A DNA stretch of 33,343 bases, from the sequence record DRR378314_795, one strand, 5' to 3'. Shown here in pieces: positions 12,859 through 25,757 of the stretch. Position 1 is the first letter of the stretch. Each line of letters begins with the position of its first letter. The notes under the pieces are model-generated. The model was not told where the DNA came from. It saw nothing but the letters and a program-made list of their open reading frames with translations, and searched no databases. The position numbers and the translations under genes are program-made.

Positions 12859-13641
12859 TTAGTGAACGGAGGCCACGAAGGCCCGGCAGCGATCACTGAG
12901 TGGGTCGCCGAAGACCTGCGCGGGCGGGCCTTCCTCTTCGATCTGCCCCTGATGCAGGTACAGAACGCGGCTTGAGACATCGCGGGCAAAGCGCATTTCA
13001 TGGGTGACCAGCAGCATGGTGCGGCCTTCGTCGGCCAGCTCGCGAATGACCTTCAGAACCTCGCCCACCAGCTCCGGATCAAGCGCCGATGTGGGTTCAT
13101 CAAACAGCATGACGCGCGGATCCATCGCCAACGCACGGGCAATCGCCACCCGCTGCTGTTGCCCGCCAGAGAGATAGGCAGGATAGGCGTCGCGCTTTTC
13201 CCAAAGGCCCACGCGGGCCAGATGCGCCTCGGCCCGGTCGGTGGCCTCGGCCCGGCTGAGGCCGAGAATCTGTACCGGCCCCTCGATCACATTCTGCAGC
13301 ACTGTCATGTGCTGCCACAGGTTGAACGATTGAAACACCATGCCGAGGCGGGAGCGGAACCCTTCAAGCTGACGGCGATTCTTCGGGACCAGACCGGTTC
13401 GCCCGGGTTTCAGGTCCAGTTCTTCGCCACCGAGAAAGATCTGTCCACTCGATGGGGTCTCCAACATGTTGATGCACCGCAGAAAGGTGCTTTTGCCAGA
13501 GCCGCTGGAGCCGATCAATGACACGACATCACCGTCCTTGGCACGGACCCCCACCCCCCGCAGTACATGCGCGGTGCCAAAATACTTGTGCAAATCGCGC
13601 ACTTCGATGGCGGGCGGTTGGGAAGGCGTGTCGTCTGGCAT
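12859..13641 (-). CDS. Polar amino acid ABC ATP-binding protein (HisP-like)
   Basis: GSSGSGKSTFLRCIN, LSGGQQQRVAIARAL, FDEPTSALDPELVGEVL. Confidence 0.93.
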   Translation of the reverse strand: MPDDTPSQPPAIEVRDLHKYFGTAHVLRGVGVRAKDGDVVSLIGSSGSGKSTFLRCINMLETPSSGQIFLGGEELDLKPGRTGLVPKNRRQLEGFRSRLGMVFQSFNLWQHMTVLQNVIEGPVQILGLSRAEATDRAEAHLARVGLWEKRDAYPAYLSGGQQQRVAIARALAMDPRVMLFDEPTSALDPELVGEVLKVIRELADEGRTMLLVTHEMRFARDVSSRVLYLHQGQIEEEGPPAQVFGDPLSDRCRAFVASVH

Positions 13642-13970
13642 CGGCTGGGTCCGTTGTTATGATCGTTTGGCGCCAGACTAGGTGTGTTACCGCCCGAAGG
13701 TCAACACTATTGCACGATTGTGCAGCCTGCGACCTCATAGATCGCCCATGGGTTGCGCAAGCTGCCTAGGTTCCCATCACCAAGGGGAGACACATGTTGG
13801 GGAGCTGCCGAGAGCAGGAAATCGGCGGAACGACAGCGTGTATGGGCTTGCCTGTATGAATGATGGCAACACGGCTTGGTGCCCCGAAGAGCCCGCTTCA
13901 TATTGTATGGCGGTGTTGTGATCGGATGCGAATGGGGACTGTGCCGAAAAACTTAGCGCAGGACGGGCAC

Positions 13971-14636
13971 TCAATCTCCGCCAGTATCGCTTTGGGGGCA
14001 TCGGGCATTGGGTGCGACATGTTCGCGGGCGGACATGTCGCGATCCAGAGCACAATCGTCTACATAACGGCGCAGCAACTCGGTGTAGAACTTCAATTCG
14101 ATCGCCTCATCCTCCGGCTTGCGTGTCTGCGGCCAGACGGTATGACGGTCTTGCAGGATCTGGTCGAGACGTGAGGCAATATTGGTAAGTGGCGCGGGGA
14201 TATTGTCCGGAGGCTGTGTCGGCATTTGATCACGGGCGGACAATGGACAATGCCGAAGAGGTGTAGGACGAAAGAAACGGCCTGCCACATTTCCGAAAGG
14301 CTGGACAACTCGGCTCGCTATGCCTTGCAGGGTCGCGCCAGCACTGCACGCCAGATTTCGGAGATACGCCACGACGGCATAGGCCAGAAATCTGACTACA
14401 TCACGGTCTGTCAGCACCGTCGGTGCCTCGACTGTACGGTCGATCAGGCCAAGCAGATACTCAGAAATATCAGGGTGGAACACGTCCGAGATGCTGCGCC
14501 CACCAGAAAATTGCAGTGCGGTCTTCAGCTCTCCATTGTGCAGGCTGACTGCGGCTACCGCCTGATCGCGACCATCAGCGGTATTGCGAATTTCCACGGT
14601 CATCATGTTCCGTGCGTATTCACTTACCTCGTACAC
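13971..14636 (-). CDS. Hypothetical protein, possibly degenerate PAS plus HisKA-like segments
   Basis: Longest ORF in a 1.3-kb gap, co-oriented with cheB-cheR; segments GRSISDVFHPD and APLTNIASRLDQIL. Start uncertain (GTG 14636 or ATG 14606/14603). Confidence 0.5.
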   Translation of the reverse strand: MYEVSEYARNMMTVEIRNTADGRDQAVAAVSLHNGELKTALQFSGGRSISDVFHPDISEYLLGLIDRTVEAPTVLTDRDVVRFLAYAVVAYLRNLACSAGATLQGIASRVVQPFGNVAGRFFRPTPLRHCPLSARDQMPTQPPDNIPAPLTNIASRLDQILQDRHTVWPQTRKPEDEAIELKFYTELLRRYVDDCALDRDMSAREHVAPNARCPQSDTGGD

Positions 14637-14929
14637 GACAGATTACCACCACATACCACTACACCATGCTAATACTCTATAGGTTGCATGCTCCAAAGCA
14701 AGTCTGGATATGGCGGGGCAATCTCGTTGCGATTGGCCGATGAAATCGTAAACTCATACTTTTTCTATAGAATGACGGGCGCTGGGGTTGAATGCACTGG
14801 TGTTTTCCTGCCTGCGCCCTCGCCGCTTTTGGTGGGCAACTCGCTCGCAGAAAATGGATGTTTTGTGTTATATTGATGGCGCCGAGGCTGTGCGTTTCGT
14901 GCAAAAGTTGCGTTTCTTGCCGCTGATCT

Positions 14930-17404
14930 TCAGAGTACGGTCACGATAACGCCGATCACATCCTGGGTCAGTCCCTTTGAAATCGGCGTGAAGGTCAGTG
15001 TCTTTACCGTCGTCTCTTCTCCGAAGGTCAGTGTTGTGCCCTCTTGCCTGTGCAAACAATCCGTTACGCGTGGCGCCAGCTGCGGAAGGCCGTTGCTATT
15101 GGTGCATTCGCTCAGATGTGTGCCGCGCCTTGGCAGGGAGCGCAGGCCGAAGAAACGCAGCGCCGCAGCAGAGGCATGGCGGATTTGTAGGGTCGGATCT
15201 ACCACCAATGTGGGGTAGGGCGTCGCCTTCAGAATTGCGGCGAGCTCGACGGACAGATGCTGCAACTCGGTGGAGTTGGTCTGCATTTCCTCATTGACGG
15301 TGATCAGCGCTTCGTTCGTTGCCTGCAGTTCCTCGTTTGAGGTTTCCAGCTCTTCGTTGGTCGCCTGGAGTTCCTCATTGGTGGCCTGCATTTCCTCGTT
15401 CACCGATTGCAACTCTTCGTTCGAGGTTTGCAGCTCCTCTATTGTCTGCTGCAGGGCGTCACGGGTCGTTGAGATCTCATCTTCGATCTGGCGCACATAG
15501 GTCAGATGCTCCTCGCTGCTCAGCTCCAGGGGGGATTGGCTGCGAGCCTGGCGACTGCGGGTCTCGATCGCAAAGAGCACATGGTGCTCGCCAGCGCCGT
15601 CGGCCAACAGCGGATAACACGTCAGCCGAACCTCCTCGAACCCGACACCGGATATGGCGTGCCAGCGGCCGTGTCGTATTGCTTCGCTGCGCAGGCTGAT
15701 GGTGATCAGGCTGGCGGCTTCGGCGCGGAGATCCGGTTTCAGGGCCTTCGTGGTCAGGCGCATCAGGGAGCTGTGTTCGTTCAGCCCGGCCACATGAGAA
15801 ATATCACCTATGATACGGATGATCTCGTTGAACCGGGTGGCGATGAACCCATTGGGGGCGAGCATGCGGACAAGCGTTTCGAACATGTCCGGAGCCAGTG
15901 GTTTTGACGGGCGTCGCAAGCTGGGCTGGACGCCGCGCTGGATTGTGCTTGTTGGCAGGATGTTGGCCGTCGGCTGCATGGGCTGGCGCAGGCCGCGCTT
16001 CGAGTAGAGCTTGTCCGGCAGAGATTGGGTTTCAAAATGCCCATGCATCGCACCGACGGTTTCGGATGTGCCGAGAAACAGCTTGCCACTGGGCACAAGA
16101 GCATAGGCCATGCGCGATAGCACTTTCTCCTGCAGGGCTGCCCCGAAATAGATCAGCAGATTACGCAAGCTGACCATGTCCATGTTGATAAAGGGCGGAT
16201 CCTGAATGATGTTGTGGCGCGAGAACAGCACGACCGCGCGCAGCTGCTTGTCCACTTCCAGCATGTCATCCCCGATATGGAAGTAGGGCTCGATGTAGGT
16301 GTGGGGCACATCATTCGCCGCCGAGAGCGGGTAGGCCCCGCGCCGTGCCACTTCCAGCGCCTGGGTGTCGATGTCCGTGGCAAAGATCTGGATGCGGTCC
16401 TTGGTCAGTTTCTCCAGCCCGCCAAGCGCCTCGGCAAAGAGGATCGCGATGGAATAGGCTTCCTCGCCTGTGGCGCAGCCTGCAACCCAGATTCGCAACT
16501 GGCGGTCGTGGCTGTCCGCCACCATGGCCCGGATGACCTTGGCCAGTTTGTTGAACTGTGACGGGTCGCGGAAGAAGCGGGTCACCGAGATCATCATGTC
16601 CTTGTAGAGCGAGTCGACCTCGCTTTCATCTGCGCGACAATGCTCGACGTAATTTTCGTAGTCGGTGACGCCCAGTGCCACCATTCGGCGGGCAATCCGG
16701 CGGTTGATGGTGGTTTCCTTGTAATCGCGAAAGTCCACGCCGGTGCGCGCCAATAGGATGTGATGGAGGTCCCTCAGCGTGCCGAAGCTGCTCGCCAGAT
16801 CTTGCAGGTCAGCAAGGCCACCGGAATCCGACAGGATGCTATCCAACTGTGGGCCGATCATGTCAGGTGACATTGTCAGGTCAATGCAGCCGGTGTGAAG
16901 CGCGGCCCAGGGCATGCCCTCGTATTTGGCCGATCCGGCCTCCTGCGCGATGGTGACACCGCCGACCTCGCGGATCGCCCGGACACCATAACTGCCATCA
17001 TTTCCGGTTCCGGAAAGAACAACTCCGATGCAGTGTTCACCGCATTCCTTGGCCAGGCTTTTGAACAATCGATCTGCCAGCGGTTTGGGCGTGCCGGGCG
17101 GGCCGCCCGGCTTGCGCAGGGCCAGCATGCCCCCGTCCAGAACGACATCGAAGTTTGGTGGCGTGATGTAGATCGTATCGGGTTGCGGTGAGATATCCTC
17201 GCTCGTCAGCTCGATGACCGGCAGTTCTGTCTCCCGATCAATCAGTGATGGCAGCAGGCTCCTGTGGGTCGGAGACATGTGTTGCACGACAATATAGCTG
17301 GCCCCGGCCTTCAACGGCAGGTGTTTCACCATCTGCGTGATCGCTTCCAACCCACCGGCAGATGCGGCGATCCCGATCATCACAGGTCGTTTTGCCTCGG
17401 CCAT
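14930..17404 (-). CDS. CheB methylesterase-CheR methyltransferase fusion with coiled coil and C-terminal PAS-like domain
   Basis: ATG 17404 after AGGAG. CheB triad motifs ASAGG, VVQHM, GTGNDG; CheR motifs TRFFRD, WVAGCATGEEAYS, ATDID, RNLLIYF; NEELQ heptads; 824 aa. Confidence 0.9.
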   Translation of the reverse strand: MAEAKRPVMIGIAASAGGLEAITQMVKHLPLKAGASYIVVQHMSPTHRSLLPSLIDRETELPVIELTSEDISPQPDTIYITPPNFDVVLDGGMLALRKPGGPPGTPKPLADRLFKSLAKECGEHCIGVVLSGTGNDGSYGVRAIREVGGVTIAQEAGSAKYEGMPWAALHTGCIDLTMSPDMIGPQLDSILSDSGGLADLQDLASSFGTLRDLHHILLARTGVDFRDYKETTINRRIARRMVALGVTDYENYVEHCRADESEVDSLYKDMMISVTRFFRDPSQFNKLAKVIRAMVADSHDRQLRIWVAGCATGEEAYSIAILFAEALGGLEKLTKDRIQIFATDIDTQALEVARRGAYPLSAANDVPHTYIEPYFHIGDDMLEVDKQLRAVVLFSRHNIIQDPPFINMDMVSLRNLLIYFGAALQEKVLSRMAYALVPSGKLFLGTSETVGAMHGHFETQSLPDKLYSKRGLRQPMQPTANILPTSTIQRGVQPSLRRPSKPLAPDMFETLVRMLAPNGFIATRFNEIIRIIGDISHVAGLNEHSSLMRLTTKALKPDLRAEAASLITISLRSEAIRHGRWHAISGVGFEEVRLTCYPLLADGAGEHHVLFAIETRSRQARSQSPLELSSEEHLTYVRQIEDEISTTRDALQQTIEELQTSNEELQSVNEEMQATNEELQATNEELETSNEELQATNEALITVNEEMQTNSTELQHLSVELAAILKATPYPTLVVDPTLQIRHASAAALRFFGLRSLPRRGTHLSECTNSNGLPQLAPRVTDCLHRQEGTTLTFGEETTVKTLTFTPISKGLTQDVIGVIVTVL
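15275..15442 (-). repeat. Eight coding 21-nt heptad repeats (xEE[LM][QE]xx coiled coil)
   Basis: IEELQTS-NEELQSV-NEEMQAT-NEELQAT-NEELETS-NEELQAT-NEALITV-NEEMQTN. Confidence 0.85.
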
Positions 17405-17701
17405 GTGCCGCACTCCTGCTCCTGCTTCGCAACGTTGCGCTGGTGCGGCGTCGCAATGTCGCCAGTATGGCGTGGTTTCGGATAAATGCCATTTCCTTGC
17501 GAGGCTGCCCAGAGGTGTCTCAGAATATTTTGCCCGATTTTCATCTGGATCCATCGCTTCATTAAGAGCAATGAGGCGGGGCAGCGAAGATGTATTTTAT
17601 GCTTGAAGCTTTTTTCTTGCGCTGAAGGAACCAGAGCAATACCGTTGCGCCAAACCGGCCCCAGGGGCGGCAACGGATCTCCGAAGGAAAGGTGCGCCAA
17701 G

Positions 17702-19733: not shown

Positions 19734-19760
19734 TCCCGCGTCAGATTACGGCCGGACAGG

Positions 19761-19797
19761 ATCGCCCTCTGCGCATGCAGGGGGCGGTTTTCATTTT
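19761..19797 (+). terminator. Intrinsic terminator of kynAU
   Basis: atcgccctctgc-gcat-gcagggggcggt followed by ttttcatttt. Confidence 0.8.
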
Positions 19798-19890
19798 GGC
19801 GCCCTCGCGGCCCATGAAAGCGCGGGCACAAGTTCTGCCGGCTGCCCCCATATGTCTGTCGCGCAAGAGCCGGGATTCTATCGTACCTGT

Positions 19891-19927
19891 TTGACAAGAG
19901 CTTCGGAATAATGACATCATGACGTCA
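19891..19927 (+). promoter_or_regulatory. Putative sigma70 promoter with overlapping repeat operator for the RHH-CHAD-ParA-CYTH operon
   Basis: Consensus -35 TTGACA (19891-19896); possible -10 CATCAT (19915-19920, 18-nt spacer) embedded in tandem ATGACATC-ATGACGTC (19911-19926). Confidence 0.55.
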
Positions 19928-19945
19928 CATTAAAGGTTCGCTACT

Positions 19946-20125
19946 ATGCCCAAAGATAAAGCCGATATCAGCAAATCCGCGCGCAAGAACACCTCGCTGC
20001 GTCTGGATGGCAAAACGCTGAAAGCCCTGAAATTGCGGGCCATCGAAGAAGATACCAGCATTCAGCGCCTCATCGAGCGGCTCATTGATGACTACCTGAA
20101 GACAACAAAGAAAAAAGGCAAATGA
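19946..20125 (+). CDS. 59-aa ribbon-helix-helix DNA-binding protein (CopG/ParG/Omega-like); absent from the ORF track
   Basis: Hand translation: MPKDKADISKSARKNTSLRLDGKTLKALKLRAIEEDTSIQRLIERLIDDYLKTTKKKGK. Alternating strand NTSLRL, helix, turn, helix SIQRLIERLIDDYL. Its TGA overlaps the next ATG (ATGA 20122-20125). Confidence 0.85.
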   Translation: MPKDKADISKSARKNTSLRLDGKTLKALKLRAIEEDTSIQRLIERLIDDYLKTTKKKGK

Positions 20126-21648
20126 CAGCAGAAGTGTCCCATAGTTTCCTGCTCGACGGCGCTGTCGAGTGGCCCGAAATTGCAACTGCGCTGGGCGATC
20201 TGCGGCTGGAATTCAACACGGAGGACACGTCACTGTCCTTCCGCATGCTGGATTGTCACGATCAACTGCTGCGAAAGTCCGGCCGCGTTTTGCTGGAGTT
20301 CGACGATCGCCTCACGATGTTGGCTGCCGGCACGCCACCACAGCGTCAGGCCACCGCCGAGGCGGCAAGGTTCCCCGCCGGTCTGCCCGAGGGGCCGGTC
20401 AAGCGCCTGACAGAGAAGACATTCCCACTGCGCTGCTTCCTGGCGATGACCAGCGGCATGCTCCACCGAAACAGCCTGCGGGTGGTGGATGACGAGGCCA
20501 AGACCCATCTGCGTGGCGAGATCCTGACCTTCGGCAGTGACGCGGGCCACGTCACGCTGGTGACCTTGTCGCCCCTGCGCGGCTATACCCGTGCGCCGGA
20601 CCGGCTGGGTGCTGCGCTTTTGGCTAATGGCGCCGGGCCGCTGGAGGCCGAACACATCTTCACCACATTGGCGCCGAATGTGACGCGCTATGTGGCCAAG
20701 CCCAAGATGAGGTTCAGCGGCCATGAGACCGCCTTTGACGTGGCGGTGGAAACGATCCGCAATTACATCGCCGTGGCCCGCGCCAATGAGGCCGGCGTGA
20801 TCGGCGACCTCGACACCGAGTTTCTGCATGACTACCGGGTGGCCCTGCGCAAGGTGCGTTCGGTGCTAAGCCTGTTCAAAGGCGTCTTTGGCTCTGTGCA
20901 GACGGCAGAGCTGAAGGCGGCATTTTCCGACCTGATGGCGCCGACGGGGCGGGTGCGTGACCTCGATGTCTATCTGATGGACCGCGCCGCCTATGATGCG
21001 CTGGTGCCCGAGCAACTGCGCCCGGGCCTGTCGGTGATGTTCGACGCCTTTGCCGCGGAACGGGACGGGGCGCAGGCAAAGCTCGTCAAGCACCTGAAAA
21101 GCAAGGGCTATCAGAAAAAGATCTCGGCACTGGAAGAACAGTTCGCCCATCCCGATGGTTTTGTGCGTGGTGAGGCGGGCGGCCTCAGCGCGGAGGTTTA
21201 CGCACGCAAGTTGGTGTGGAAGAGTTATCGCAAGATCTGCAAGATCGCCGCCCATATTGGTGACGACACCGTGGATGAGGACGTTCACGAATTGCGCATC
21301 GCCTGCAAGAAATTCCGCTACCTGCTGGAGTTCTTCGCGCCGCTGTTCCCGGGCAAGAGTGCCAAGCGCCTGATCACGCGGATGAAGGCGCTGCAGGATA
21401 CCCTCGGGGTCTTCAATGATTGTTCTGTGCAGAAGGACTCTCTGGCCGCATTCATGTCCACGCACCCTGCCGTCACCGGTGCCAAGGGGCTGGAGGCGGC
21501 GCAAAGCATCGGCGCGCTGATCGCCATTCTCGACCAGCGCCAGCGGGCGGAGCGGGCGCGTGTGATGGAGAATTTCGACCATTTCAACAGCGCCGAGACC
21601 CGCGCCGAGATCAAGGCGCTGTGCCAGCGCAAGGGGGCCGCGGCATGA
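20122..21648 (+). CDS. CHAD domain protein (polyphosphate-binding family) with N-terminal degenerate CYTH-like region
   Basis: CHAD motifs EFLHDYRVALRKVRSVL, GRVRDLDV, VHELRIACKKFRYLLEFF, LQDTLGVFND. Confidence 0.88.
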   Translation: MTAEVSHSFLLDGAVEWPEIATALGDLRLEFNTEDTSLSFRMLDCHDQLLRKSGRVLLEFDDRLTMLAAGTPPQRQATAEAARFPAGLPEGPVKRLTEKTFPLRCFLAMTSGMLHRNSLRVVDDEAKTHLRGEILTFGSDAGHVTLVTLSPLRGYTRAPDRLGAALLANGAGPLEAEHIFTTLAPNVTRYVAKPKMRFSGHETAFDVAVETIRNYIAVARANEAGVIGDLDTEFLHDYRVALRKVRSVLSLFKGVFGSVQTAELKAAFSDLMAPTGRVRDLDVYLMDRAAYDALVPEQLRPGLSVMFDAFAAERDGAQAKLVKHLKSKGYQKKISALEEQFAHPDGFVRGEAGGLSAEVYARKLVWKSYRKICKIAAHIGDDTVDEDVHELRIACKKFRYLLEFFAPLFPGKSAKRLITRMKALQDTLGVFNDCSVQKDSLAAFMSTHPAVTGAKGLEAAQSIGALIAILDQRQRAERARVMENFDHFNSAETRAEIKALCQRKGAAA

Positions 21649-22427
21649 AGATCATCGCCTGCTACAGCAACAAGGGCGGCGTGGGCAAGACCGCCTTGGC
21701 GGTGAACCTCGCCTATGCCTATGCGCAATCCGGCGCGCGCACCCTGCTCTGCGATCTCGACCCGCAGGGGGCGTCGAGCTTCTACTTCCGGGTGAAACCG
21801 TCGAAAAAACTGAAGGACGCACAGTTTTTTGAGGACGTGGACCGCTTCACCCGTGCGATCCGGGGCAGCGACTACGAGAACCTCGACATCCTGCCCGCCA
21901 ATCTGACCTTCCGCGACTTTGACGTGTTCCTGTCGCGGATGAAGAACAGCCGGTCGCGCCTGAAAAAGGCGCTGAAAGCGGTGGATGGCGATTATGACGT
22001 GATCATTCTGGATTGCCCACCCAACATCTCCTCGCTGTCGGAGGCGGTGTTCAAGGCCGCCGACAGGGTGGTGGTGCCGGTGATCCCGACCACCCTCTCC
22101 GAACGCAGCTTCGAACAGCTGATTGCGTTCTTCAGGGAGAGCGGGCTGAAGACTGCAAAGCTGCTGGCCTTCTTCTCCATGGTGCAGGGGCGCAAGACCC
22201 TGCATGGCGAGACGATGGCGCGGCTGCGTGACAGCTATGGCAAGCTGTTCCTGACCACGGAGGTGCCGTTTTCCACCGATGTGGAGAAGATGGGCGTGCA
22301 TCGTGAGCCGGCGCTGTGCTTTGCAAAGACGCGCCCGGCGGGCAGGGCCTATCTGGCGCTGTTCGACGAGGTGAACGCTCATGTGTCGGGTAGGAATACA
22401 GCCGTGAGAACAAAGGGATCGCCATGA
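21645..22427 (+). CDS. ParA/Soj-family ATPase (no N-terminal HTH; no ParB in window)
   Basis: Deviant Walker A KGGVGKT, DLDPQG, Walker B IILDCPP; 260 aa from ATG 21645; ATGA overlaps at both ends. Confidence 0.92.
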   Translation: MKIIACYSNKGGVGKTALAVNLAYAYAQSGARTLLCDLDPQGASSFYFRVKPSKKLKDAQFFEDVDRFTRAIRGSDYENLDILPANLTFRDFDVFLSRMKNSRSRLKKALKAVDGDYDVIILDCPPNISSLSEAVFKAADRVVVPVIPTTLSERSFEQLIAFFRESGLKTAKLLAFFSMVQGRKTLHGETMARLRDSYGKLFLTTEVPFSTDVEKMGVHREPALCFAKTRPAGRAYLALFDEVNAHVSGRNTAVRTKGSP

Positions 22428-22897
22428 AAGAGATCGAACGGAAGTACCTGGTGGCGGAGCGCCCCGATCTGACCGCAGCCACGGCGACGCCGGTCAAGCA
22501 AGGCTATCTGACAGCGTTGGAGGACAGCACCGAACTGCGCCTGCGCCAGAAGGGGGAACGGTTCTTCCTCACCCAGAAGGGCGGCGCAGGCCGGGTGCGC
22601 GAGGAACGCGAGGCGGAGATCACCCTAGTCGTCTACGAGACCTTCTGGCCCGGCACCGAGGGGCGGCGGCTGGAAAAGACCCGCTGGACTGGCGTGTTGG
22701 CGGATGGCTCGGGGTATGAGCTCGACATTTTCGAGGGCACACTGGCACCATTGCAGATGGTTGAGGTGGAGTTCGCCGATGAGGCTGCGGCGGAGGCCTT
22801 CGTGCCGCCCGAATGGTTCGGGCGCGAGGTGACAGAGGACAAGCGGTTCGGCAACAAGTCCCTCGCGGTGCATGGCCTGCCGGAGGGCGCTGTCTGA
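22424..22897 (+). CDS. CYTH domain protein (triphosphate tunnel metalloenzyme)
   Basis: N-terminal EIERKYLV (ExExK), LRLRQ, EKTR, ELDIF, VEVEF, WFGREVT, NKSLA; 157 aa. Confidence 0.92.
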   Translation: MKEIERKYLVAERPDLTAATATPVKQGYLTALEDSTELRLRQKGERFFLTQKGGAGRVREEREAEITLVVYETFWPGTEGRRLEKTRWTGVLADGSGYELDIFEGTLAPLQMVEVEFADEAAAEAFVPPEWFGREVTEDKRFGNKSLAVHGLPEGAV

Positions 22898-25481: not shown

Positions 25482-25533
25482 GTTTGTGTCCTCCGTGCCG
25501 TCACACCCGACGGCAGACATAAAGTTCTCGTTC

Positions 25534-25722
25534 CATACGGCCGGTCTCCTGACTCGCGGGTCACGGCGATCATCCTCCTTCCCGGCACGCAGGCCAGTGG
25601 GTTCAGAATGTCGCTCGCCGCTCACAGTCGCGGGGGCGGTTGGGGCTTCGGCGCCGCGATTGGGTCCGCCGTTCCTCATTCCCGTTTCAGTCCCGATGCT
25701 TTGCATCATCAGACACCGTATG
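25534..25722 (-). promoter_or_regulatory. Cobalamin riboswitch
   Basis: Minus strand reads atacggtg...aaacgggaa...cgcccccgcgactgtgagcg...ccactg...gggaagg...gcgagtcaggagaccggccgtat (B12 box; P1 atacgg/ccgtat). Downstream hairpin tgccgtc/gacggca (25496-25515) abuts the cbtB RBS, suggesting translational control. Confidence 0.95.
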
Positions 25723-25727
25723 CATCT

Positions 25728-25757
25728 GTTGTGCCTTGCGCGCTTTGCTCCGGTCAA
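25728..25757 (-). promoter_or_regulatory. Putative promoter for the riboswitch-cbtBA transcript
   Basis: TTGACC at 25757-25752, about 35 nt upstream of riboswitch P1; -10 is non-consensus. Confidence 0.35.

Follow-up and report, generated by a model that had tools for sequence, protein, structure and literature searches.

Type Ib plasmid partition systems pair a Walker A ATPase that lacks a helix-turn-helix (HTH) domain with a small ribbon-helix-helix (RHH) protein and a repeat site at the promoter; the RHH protein is an obligate partner, and the centromere holds many repeats. RHH repressors of the MetJ type bind tandem 8-bp boxes cooperatively. Phosins are proteins with a CHAD domain: CtCHAD has been solved with polyphosphate (polyP), mutation of its contact residues weakens polyP binding, and localisation to polyP granules has been shown for other CHAD proteins (available text of PMC6537752). 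The spacing and inheritance of bacterial polyP granules is a stated open question. Granule positioning is treated as unresolved in the available part of PMC11894788, and the accessible text of a 2025 review gives its ATP dependence as 'Unknown', naming only AlgP, through which Pseudomonas aeruginosa positions its granules (PMC13052382). The part available of a 2026 paper describes the molecular basis of positioning as unclear, spacing in Synechococcus elongatus being independent of McdA, its only ParA-family ATPase (PMC13556221). Here we describe a four-gene operon in sequence record DRR378314_795 (the window, a stretch of 33,343 nucleotides), which encodes an RHH protein, a two-domain phosin, a ParA/MinD-family ATPase and a short CYTH protein. 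It is a strong candidate for ATP-driven machinery that organises the granules, because many unrelated bacteria share the pairing of ParA with the phosin. For this process it supplies a candidate ATPase and adaptor domain, together with an accessory hydrolase and an operator, also as candidates.

The open reading frame (ORF) list and Pfam matches place the RHH, CHAD, ParA and CYTH genes in that order on the same strand, all four being coupled by ATGA stop/start overlaps at 20122, 21645 and 22424; coordinates and sequence confirmed this arrangement as described in an earlier, sequence-only reading of the window. That reading had proposed a partition-like module with the polyP granule as its cargo. 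Its polyP gene linkage, CYTH hydrolase and RHH autorepressor were supported, whereas the RHH protein as a tether or partition partner was not. We regard the conserved phosin-ParA module, with an accessory tripolyphosphatase and autorepressor, as real, and a link between the ParA operon and polyP granule biology as likely. The best explanation is a two-gene core of phosin and ParA that acts on polyP granules, to which CYTH and RHH are accessory. The closest named locus, from Tritonibacter scottomollicae, is 95-98% identical across all four proteins; the nearest genome, G001, served as a stand-in for the window's own.

Gene neighbourhoods were compared in four samples. GTDB genomes yielded 175 confirmed relatives, of which the best 80 formed the close set; CHAD lies directly upstream of ParA in 78/80 of these loci, CYTH downstream in 60/80 and RHH upstream in 43/80. 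The loci span alpha-, beta- and gammaproteobacteria and Desulfotalea, and their flanks differ widely. The metagenome set comprised the best 80 of at least 555 confirmed members, on contigs that may repeat taxa and cover one part of the ParA family. Its query was a distant ParA-CYTH fusion and not a CHAD protein; despite this, the members are unfused ParAs about 45% identical to the window's. CHAD was directly upstream in all 61 loci where 600 bp or more of sequence precedes ParA and was seen in 76/80, the four misses having at most 218 bp. In the phylum of genome G302, the ParA family occurred in 8/151 genomes (locus L077 among these loci), with CHAD directly upstream in 6/8, convergent in one and missing from the 13 kb retrieved for the other. 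None of 20 Soj control loci had CHAD upstream. The consistent linkage of ParA with CHAD and polyP genes that the earlier reading looked to is thus seen in three samples and fails in the fourth, a set of 301 Pseudomonadota genomes, in which the adjacency is rare (see below).

Genes of polyP metabolism accompany the pair. Among metagenome loci with at least 7 kb of flank, 9/22 contain ppk1, ppk2 or ppx, compared with 0/20 control loci, and L151 has the gene order ppk1-CHAD-parA-sixA-ppx-phoU. Other neighbours include SixA-type phosphatases, Nudix and Pit/PhoU, and in family f6 four loci, close kin of each other, have ppk2 directly upstream of ParA in CHAD's place. A PPK2 gene occupies the usual CHAD position in L117, L118, L182 and L183, being tandem-domain in L117 and L118. 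Across the Pseudomonadota genomes, CHAD was present in 56/65 with the ParA family and 88/236 without it, and within f6 in 9/12 and 5/52, respectively; these counts include kin, which are not independent, so that such comparisons are inflated, and three genome-wide CHAD matches, with E about 1e-14, are weak. In 50 diverse pairs, the distances of ParA and CHAD are correlated (rho 0.75, permutation maximum 0.25), as would be expected of any co-inherited operon, and this mirror-distance correlation was therefore set aside as evidence of contact.

The phosin gene (20122..21648, + strand) encodes 508 aa, with a barrel resembling triphosphate tunnel metalloenzymes (TTM) but without ExExK at residues ~1-200 and a long-type CHAD domain at residues ~204-500. 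Pfam CHAD (PF05235) matches residues 212-441 only (E 7e-60), and the structure model (predicted local distance difference test, pLDDT, 93) shows a beta-rich N-domain followed by a long CHAD domain, which superposes on CtCHAD (6qv7/6qva) with a template modelling (TM) score of 0.93-0.94 of target at 34% identity; fold matches to TTM enzymes were weaker. His-236, Arg-239, Arg-243, Arg-279, Arg-399 and Tyr-400 are invariant in 61 rows and, as mapped by alignment, correspond to the polyP contacts of CtCHAD.

The N-domain was one of two features found beyond the sequence-only reading, the other being a pair of tandem 8-bp boxes at 19912-19927. Its TTM assignment is based on the structure model and the Foldseek matches of this model (E about 1e-3, probability 1.0); a sequence-level link to CYTH was not detected, nor was there a Pfam CYTH match. 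The domain has no ExExK strand, and Asp-44, Asp-47, Arg-104, Lys-127, Arg-131 and Tyr-155 are conserved in 50 diverse rows. An N-domain profile gave eight matches in the 301 genomes, seven of them directly before a family ParA, a result that is partly circular because five of the seven were in the profile. At the eighth (G037), parA and CYTH were not matched in the 9 kb fetched, and the cobF neighbour remains. The N-domain was present in 48/49 informative loci of the metagenome set; a word-index search for further relatives was insensitive, with six matches.

The ParA gene (21645..22427, + strand) encodes a Soj-like ParA/MinD-family ATPase of 260 aa from its ATG (Pfam AAA_31, E 2e-38), with no N-terminal HTH. 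It carries the deviant Walker A motif set, namely KGGxGKT with the signature lysine, a DxDxQ switch I and the Walker B aspartate, and Lys-10, Lys-15, Thr-16, Asp-37, Asp-39, Gln-41 and Asp-123 from these motifs are invariant in 85 rows. A conserved C-terminal amphipathic membrane-targeting helix, a feature of MinD, was not found: residues after 248 form low-confidence coil, and homologues end near 247-250. The best Foldseek matches of the model (pLDDT 87) were Soj/ParA proteins (TM 0.82-0.85), with Soj far ahead of Delta; McdA of Cyanothece is 18% identical.

A profile (A1) built from 84 ParA relatives gave 67 matches in 65/301 Pseudomonadota genomes at 229 bits or more, the next score being 178.5 bits. 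A phylogeny, also proposed in the sequence-only reading, was constructed from 147 rows that cover part of the loci and proteins together with 13 of the 20 controls, which are Soj-type proteins and a few other ParAs but not McdA, ParC or ParF. It sets the family apart from the 13 controls as a separate clade with support 100 and a long branch, its inner branches being mostly weak. Identity as a chromosomal Soj/ParA of a ParABS system was rejected on the basis of this clade, the gap from 229 to 178.5 bits and the lack of parB among the window proteins scanned. The subfamily that includes the window's ParA (25 rows, support 97) draws its members from alpha-, beta- and gammaproteobacteria as well as Desulfotalea and is patchy, occurring in 1/18 genomes of the family of G001. 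This patchy spread and the many different flanks suggest that the operon may travel as a mobile cassette. Apparent decay products of the cassette were also seen: RHH-parA without CHAD (L020:5584-6750), CHAD without parA or CYTH (L269, in G037) and a box without detectable RHH (L054).

The analysis shows how the genes are laid out, that their linkage is conserved, which family the ParA belongs to, which folds are predicted, that polyP-binding and ATPase residues are conserved and that the operator tracks RHH; the mechanism we propose has five steps, of which certainty falls from the first to the last. The CHAD domain would coat polyP granules, CYTH would hydrolyse tripolyphosphate freed in polyP turnover, and RHH would bind the tandem 8-bp boxes and repress its own promoter; each of these is likely. 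In the fourth step, the TTM-like N-domain, which is catalytically degenerate, would serve the phosin as an adaptor touching the ParA dimer, a role that we favour slightly. In the fifth, ATP-bound basic ParA dimers on the nucleoid would be released by granule-bound phosin, with the outcome that granules are spaced, segregated or kept from coalescing, by analogy with McdAB and carboxysomes. For this nucleoid-based cycle we see the chances as evenly balanced, and McdAB-like positioning, which we would accept or doubt with equal readiness, is the best single mechanism.

Several results weigh against granule positioning by a phosin-docked ParA. Partner activators of ParA proteins typically carry a basic disordered N-terminus (10.1101/2022.06.09.495121), whereas the first 20 residues of the phosin have a mean net charge of -1.5 (61 rows) and are ordered from residue 7 in the model, so they are not a basic activator peptide; another surface of the phosin could act as the ATPase activator. 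Distances among ParAs agree more closely with those of the CHAD domain than with those of the N-domain (rho 0.75 versus 0.52 in the 50 diverse pairs), which gives the N-domain no special standing. Only 7/55 Pseudomonadota members with flanks fetched adjoin CHAD; for the remaining 12 of the 67 matches, the CHAD matches of the genome are on other contigs or absent. Families f7, f10, f17, f20, f42 and others keep ParA beside rnfH (rnfH/truA), rpoZ or gyrB, and the N-domain profile had no match in their genomes. CHAD was not matched in 9/65 ParA-bearing genomes, including 4/6 in f20, where CHAD was found in 2/6. Since S. elongatus spaces its granules without McdA and P. aeruginosa uses AlgP, a ParA-phosin system cannot be universal. 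In four f10 genomes (G011, G043, G059 and G095; loci L123, L142, L143 and L144), a CHAD-unlinked ParA by rnfH lies 1-3 kb from an MreB/Mbl-family gene that is followed by a protein of >1000 aa without a Pfam match. This gene looks MamK-like, in which case the hosts would presumably be magnetotactic cocci. Magnetotactic cocci store large polyP inclusions.

The strongest alternative, though on balance an unlikely one, treats polyP as the surface and not the cargo: ATP-bound basic ParA dimers would bind polyP and load, release or gate granule-surface proteins (phosin, TTM, PPK2 and PPX), with control of turnover or size, and not of position on the nucleoid, as the result. The mean net charge of ParA is +11 in close members and +9 in the wider family, compared with -3 in the Soj controls, and it is plausible that this basic ATPase binds a polyanion, either DNA or polyP; a net basic surface suits DNA equally. 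The DNA-binding arginines of Bacillus subtilis Soj are R189 and R218. At position 209, the Arg218-equivalent, close members have Phe or Tyr (79/79) and controls Arg (20/20), a replacement that leaves nucleoid binding no more than putative and is a further point against the proposed cycle. The second arginine, at position 183, is variable in the close subfamily (Arg in 22/79), but it is still Arg in 91/95 diverse members. Conserved family-specific residues are Arg-90, Arg-154, Lys-184, His-187, Glu-214 and Arg-220, a predominantly basic set gained alongside the loss of the Soj arginine. That every one of the interchangeable neighbours is an enzyme of polyP or phosphate (PPK2, SixA, Nudix, CYTH and PPX), that ParA is fused directly to CYTH and HAD phosphatase domains, and that it is retained where the N-domain phosin was not found all fit a ParA working on polyP itself. 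However, its closest solved folds are nucleoid-binding Soj proteins, and a 2024 review of these ATPases gives the nucleoid and the membrane as their matrices; 'polyphosphate' is absent from its main text (PMC11407121) and from 10.1101/2022.06.09.495121. A broader proposal is that the widespread ParA family is a dedicated ATP-driven organiser of polyP granules; it would dock on a catalytically dead TTM domain that evolved into an adaptor on the phosin (or, in other lineages, on PPK2 or a fused TTM) and perhaps use polyP as its surface. We put this forward tentatively, as possible rather than probable; if true, ParA/MinD ATPases would have polyP as a third type of matrix, beside DNA and membrane.

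A second alternative, which we consider improbable, is a general-purpose ParA, a positioning or switch ATPase with several unrelated cargos. The polyP operon would then be a lineage-limited recruitment, and CHAD linkage would reflect co-regulation or co-transfer without physical coupling. The 48/55 inspected Pseudomonadota members that are not beside CHAD agree with this, as do the f20 members, mostly without CHAD, and some of the fusions. Among 103 longer ParA forms, the added domain is CYTH in 21, CHAD in 18, S6PP/HAD in 10 and SBP_bac_3 in 13. The S6PP/HAD and SBP_bac_3 domains have no known polyP role, and their fusions also count against a dedicated granule function; several ParA-CYTH fusions keep ExExK, and others are degenerate. 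Most of the 18 CHAD-ParA 'fusions', mostly singletons, show out-of-frame-looking stretches between the domains, a further weakness of the case for coupling. These were discarded as Rosetta-stone evidence, being apparent frameshift artefacts, and counted as adjacency only. P0191 was retained: it is a clean ParA-N-domain-CHAD fusion, with a second full-length member of 771 aa from another source. Such a three-domain fusion argues against unrelated cargos, and so do CHAD-parA junctions that overlap or nearly overlap even at ~45% ParA and ~25% CHAD identity, a dedicated N-domain variant found almost only before family ParA, and the enrichment of CHAD even in genomes where ParA is unlinked.

Three further groups of longer forms were observed. 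P0151 joins a degenerate N-domain (probability 72%) to ParA without CHAD and is a singleton. P0173-P0189 and the P0178 cluster have a C-terminal SBP_bac_3 fold, the same length being repeated in many assemblies, and are possibly ligand-gated ParAs. P0009, P0155, P0158 and relatives are ParA-S6PP/HAD-IIB phosphatase fusions of 561 aa in a 28-member cluster, with two named Bacteroidota.

The first gene of the operon (19946..20125, + strand) encodes an RHH protein of 59 aa (Pfam RHH_1, 21.1 bits with a cut-off of 20.5) that is accessory and probably an autorepressor. Its candidate operator (19912..19927, strand unassigned) consists of the tandem 8-bp boxes TGACATCA and TGACGTCA, which lie over the -10 element of the promoter; relatives often have a third, degenerate box, and the consensus is three boxes with an 8-bp period. 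At least one exact box was found upstream of 42/43 RHH genes in the close set. In a position-fixed test of 75 loci, boxes were present in 40/42 RHH-containing and 4/33 RHH-lacking loci, with a background of 0.024 expected per 510 bp; four loci at contig ends and L079, which has no full ParA, were left out, and loci with broken CHAD can be mis-anchored. Two of the four RHH-lacking loci with boxes have a degenerate RHH, and in one an RHH lies beyond the stretch tested. Five genomes each have a single copy of the tandem pattern; in four it lies at the operon, whereas the match in G303 is elsewhere. Two to three boxes over a promoter, at one site per genome, form an autorepressor layout like that of MetJ and not a centromere, and both an RHH regulon and an RHH centromere were rejected on the single site in each of these genomes. 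The boxes over the -10 element, which track RHH, support the autorepressor role that the earlier reading had suggested. An RHH_9-like protein, below its curated cut-off, precedes the CHAD gene at L044:3920-4246, L049:4031-4357 and L075:3853-4194, where the usual RHH and boxes are absent.

The other role offered for RHH, as a DNA tether or type Ib partner, did not hold, and a plasmid-derived partition pair, with RHH as centromere binder, ParA as motor, the boxes as centromere and the polyP genes as passengers, is very improbable: an HTH-less ParA does share an operon with a small RHH protein and a repeat site beside the promoter, RHH N-terminal tails are Lys-rich (mean net +2.2), the cassette is found in many flanks including some Paracoccus megaplasmids, and L020 holds RHH-parA without CHAD, but RHH is found in 43/80 close loci and its profile had no match in the best 80 metagenome loci while CHAD is nearly constant, the tails are unconserved (5 to 40 residues, 27/43 without arginine), the operator is a single site of two to three boxes, the ParA family is on 8/72,556 plasmids and no rep gene turned up in the two regions inspected there (12.7 kb), the ParF-type model NF041546 scores 95 with a cut-off of 180, and the nearest folds are Soj proteins, far ahead of Delta.

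The fourth gene (22424..22897, + strand) encodes a short CYTH/TTM protein of 157 aa (Pfam CYTH, 25.7 bits with a cut-off of 23.2). Its only solved relatives are NE1496/NeuTTM (PDB 2fbl; E 1.4e-50 over the whole length), and the alignment shows that ExExK, Tyr-28 and Lys-52 are kept. NeuTTM is a specific inorganic triphosphatase with a proposed Tyr28/Lys52 dyad (available text of PMC3440374). A Nitrosomonas homologue far closer to NE1496 (E 2e-79) sits in a CHAD-parA-CYTH operon (L017). The assignment of CYTH as a short-polyP hydrolase is thus well supported by homology with the signature residues kept, and the operon suggests in what physiological setting NeuTTM, an orphan tripolyphosphatase, could plausibly act.

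Upstream of the operon, a probable intrinsic terminator after kynU (19758..19797, + strand) consists of a hairpin and U-rich tail. The fold of 19755-19800 has an energy of -24.9 kcal/mol (z -5.1, 0/200 shuffles), which supports the insulation described in the sequence-only reading, although a pattern scan did not list this terminator. The sigma-70-type promoter-like site (19891..19920, + strand) consists of TTGACA, an 18-nt spacer and CATCAT and matches 10/12 consensus positions. Two sites of similar score were found with 1.0 expected, so the score alone is only suggestive; a TTG at the same offset recurs in a consensus built from 38 related promoters. Downstream of the operon, folding revealed no 3' terminator (z +1.0), and cobF is convergent. 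No convincing Pho box was found upstream, the best window site having 5 mismatches of 14 to the consensus; better scores in RHH-containing loci derive from the RHH operator itself. The context is chromosomal, with kynA-kynU upstream and a convergent cobalamin cluster with a riboswitch downstream, and the earlier statement that the window has no ParB, Rep or integrase holds for the 34 ORFs scanned against Pfam.

Elsewhere in the window, a CheB-CheR-coiled-coil-PAS fusion (14930-17554, - strand) has no neighbouring chemotaxis cluster among the ORFs scanned. GC content drops to 0.54 around 14000-15500 (region 13000-15500), and an ORF in this low-GC stretch (13971-14636) has no Pfam match at 1e-8. 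The cobalamin riboswitch (25522-25735, - strand), upstream of cbtB-cbtA within the cobalamin cluster, is ordinary.

The linkage folD-ppk-parA-CHAD has been noted in Acidithiobacillus, where the available texts call parA a partition gene and propose no polyP role (PMC10892726, PMC6416229). No ParA-family match was found in the part of PMC9239181 that was available, and no ATPase partner is described in the phosin papers searched. In the literature searched, we came across no work that has a ParA acting at polyP granules; subscription journals and supplements, such as granule proteomes or the gene maps of Fig. 1B in PMC6537752, may hold such work. The candidate system occurs in culturable marine Rhodobacterales.

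Compared with described systems, the locus resembles type Ib partition (ParF/ParG of TP228 and Delta/Omega of pSM19035) in its HTH-less Walker A ATPase, small RHH protein and promoter repeat site; it differs in that RHH of the window type is dispensable, no centromere array is present, the genes are not plasmid-enriched and the ATPase lies outside the ParF model. As in MetJ, an RHH protein accompanies a promoter overlaid by near-palindromic 8-bp boxes in tandem, which it is predicted to bind, but the window RHH is of another family with another box sequence, and its one site per genome forms no regulon. CYTH is homologous to NeuTTM/NE1496 of Nitrosomonas europaea (2fbl, 3typ) over its whole length and keeps ExExK, Tyr28 and Lys52; the same activity is predicted for it. 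The phosin shares a long-type CHAD domain, conserved polyP contacts and an N-terminal TTM-like barrel with known phosins (CtCHAD 6qv7/6qva, PptA and E. coli YgiF); its N-domain differs in lacking ExExK and a Pfam CYTH match, and in being a variant that occurs almost only upstream of family ParA. Like McdA/McdB, the operon sets the gene for an HTH-less ParA-type ATPase beside that for the predicted coat of a non-DNA body, with no ParB nearby. The McdAB partner is small with a basic disordered N-terminus, whereas that of the window is a 500-aa TTM-like/CHAD phosin, its ATPase belongs to a Soj-like family of its own, and the cargo of this putative positioning system would be a polymer condensate.

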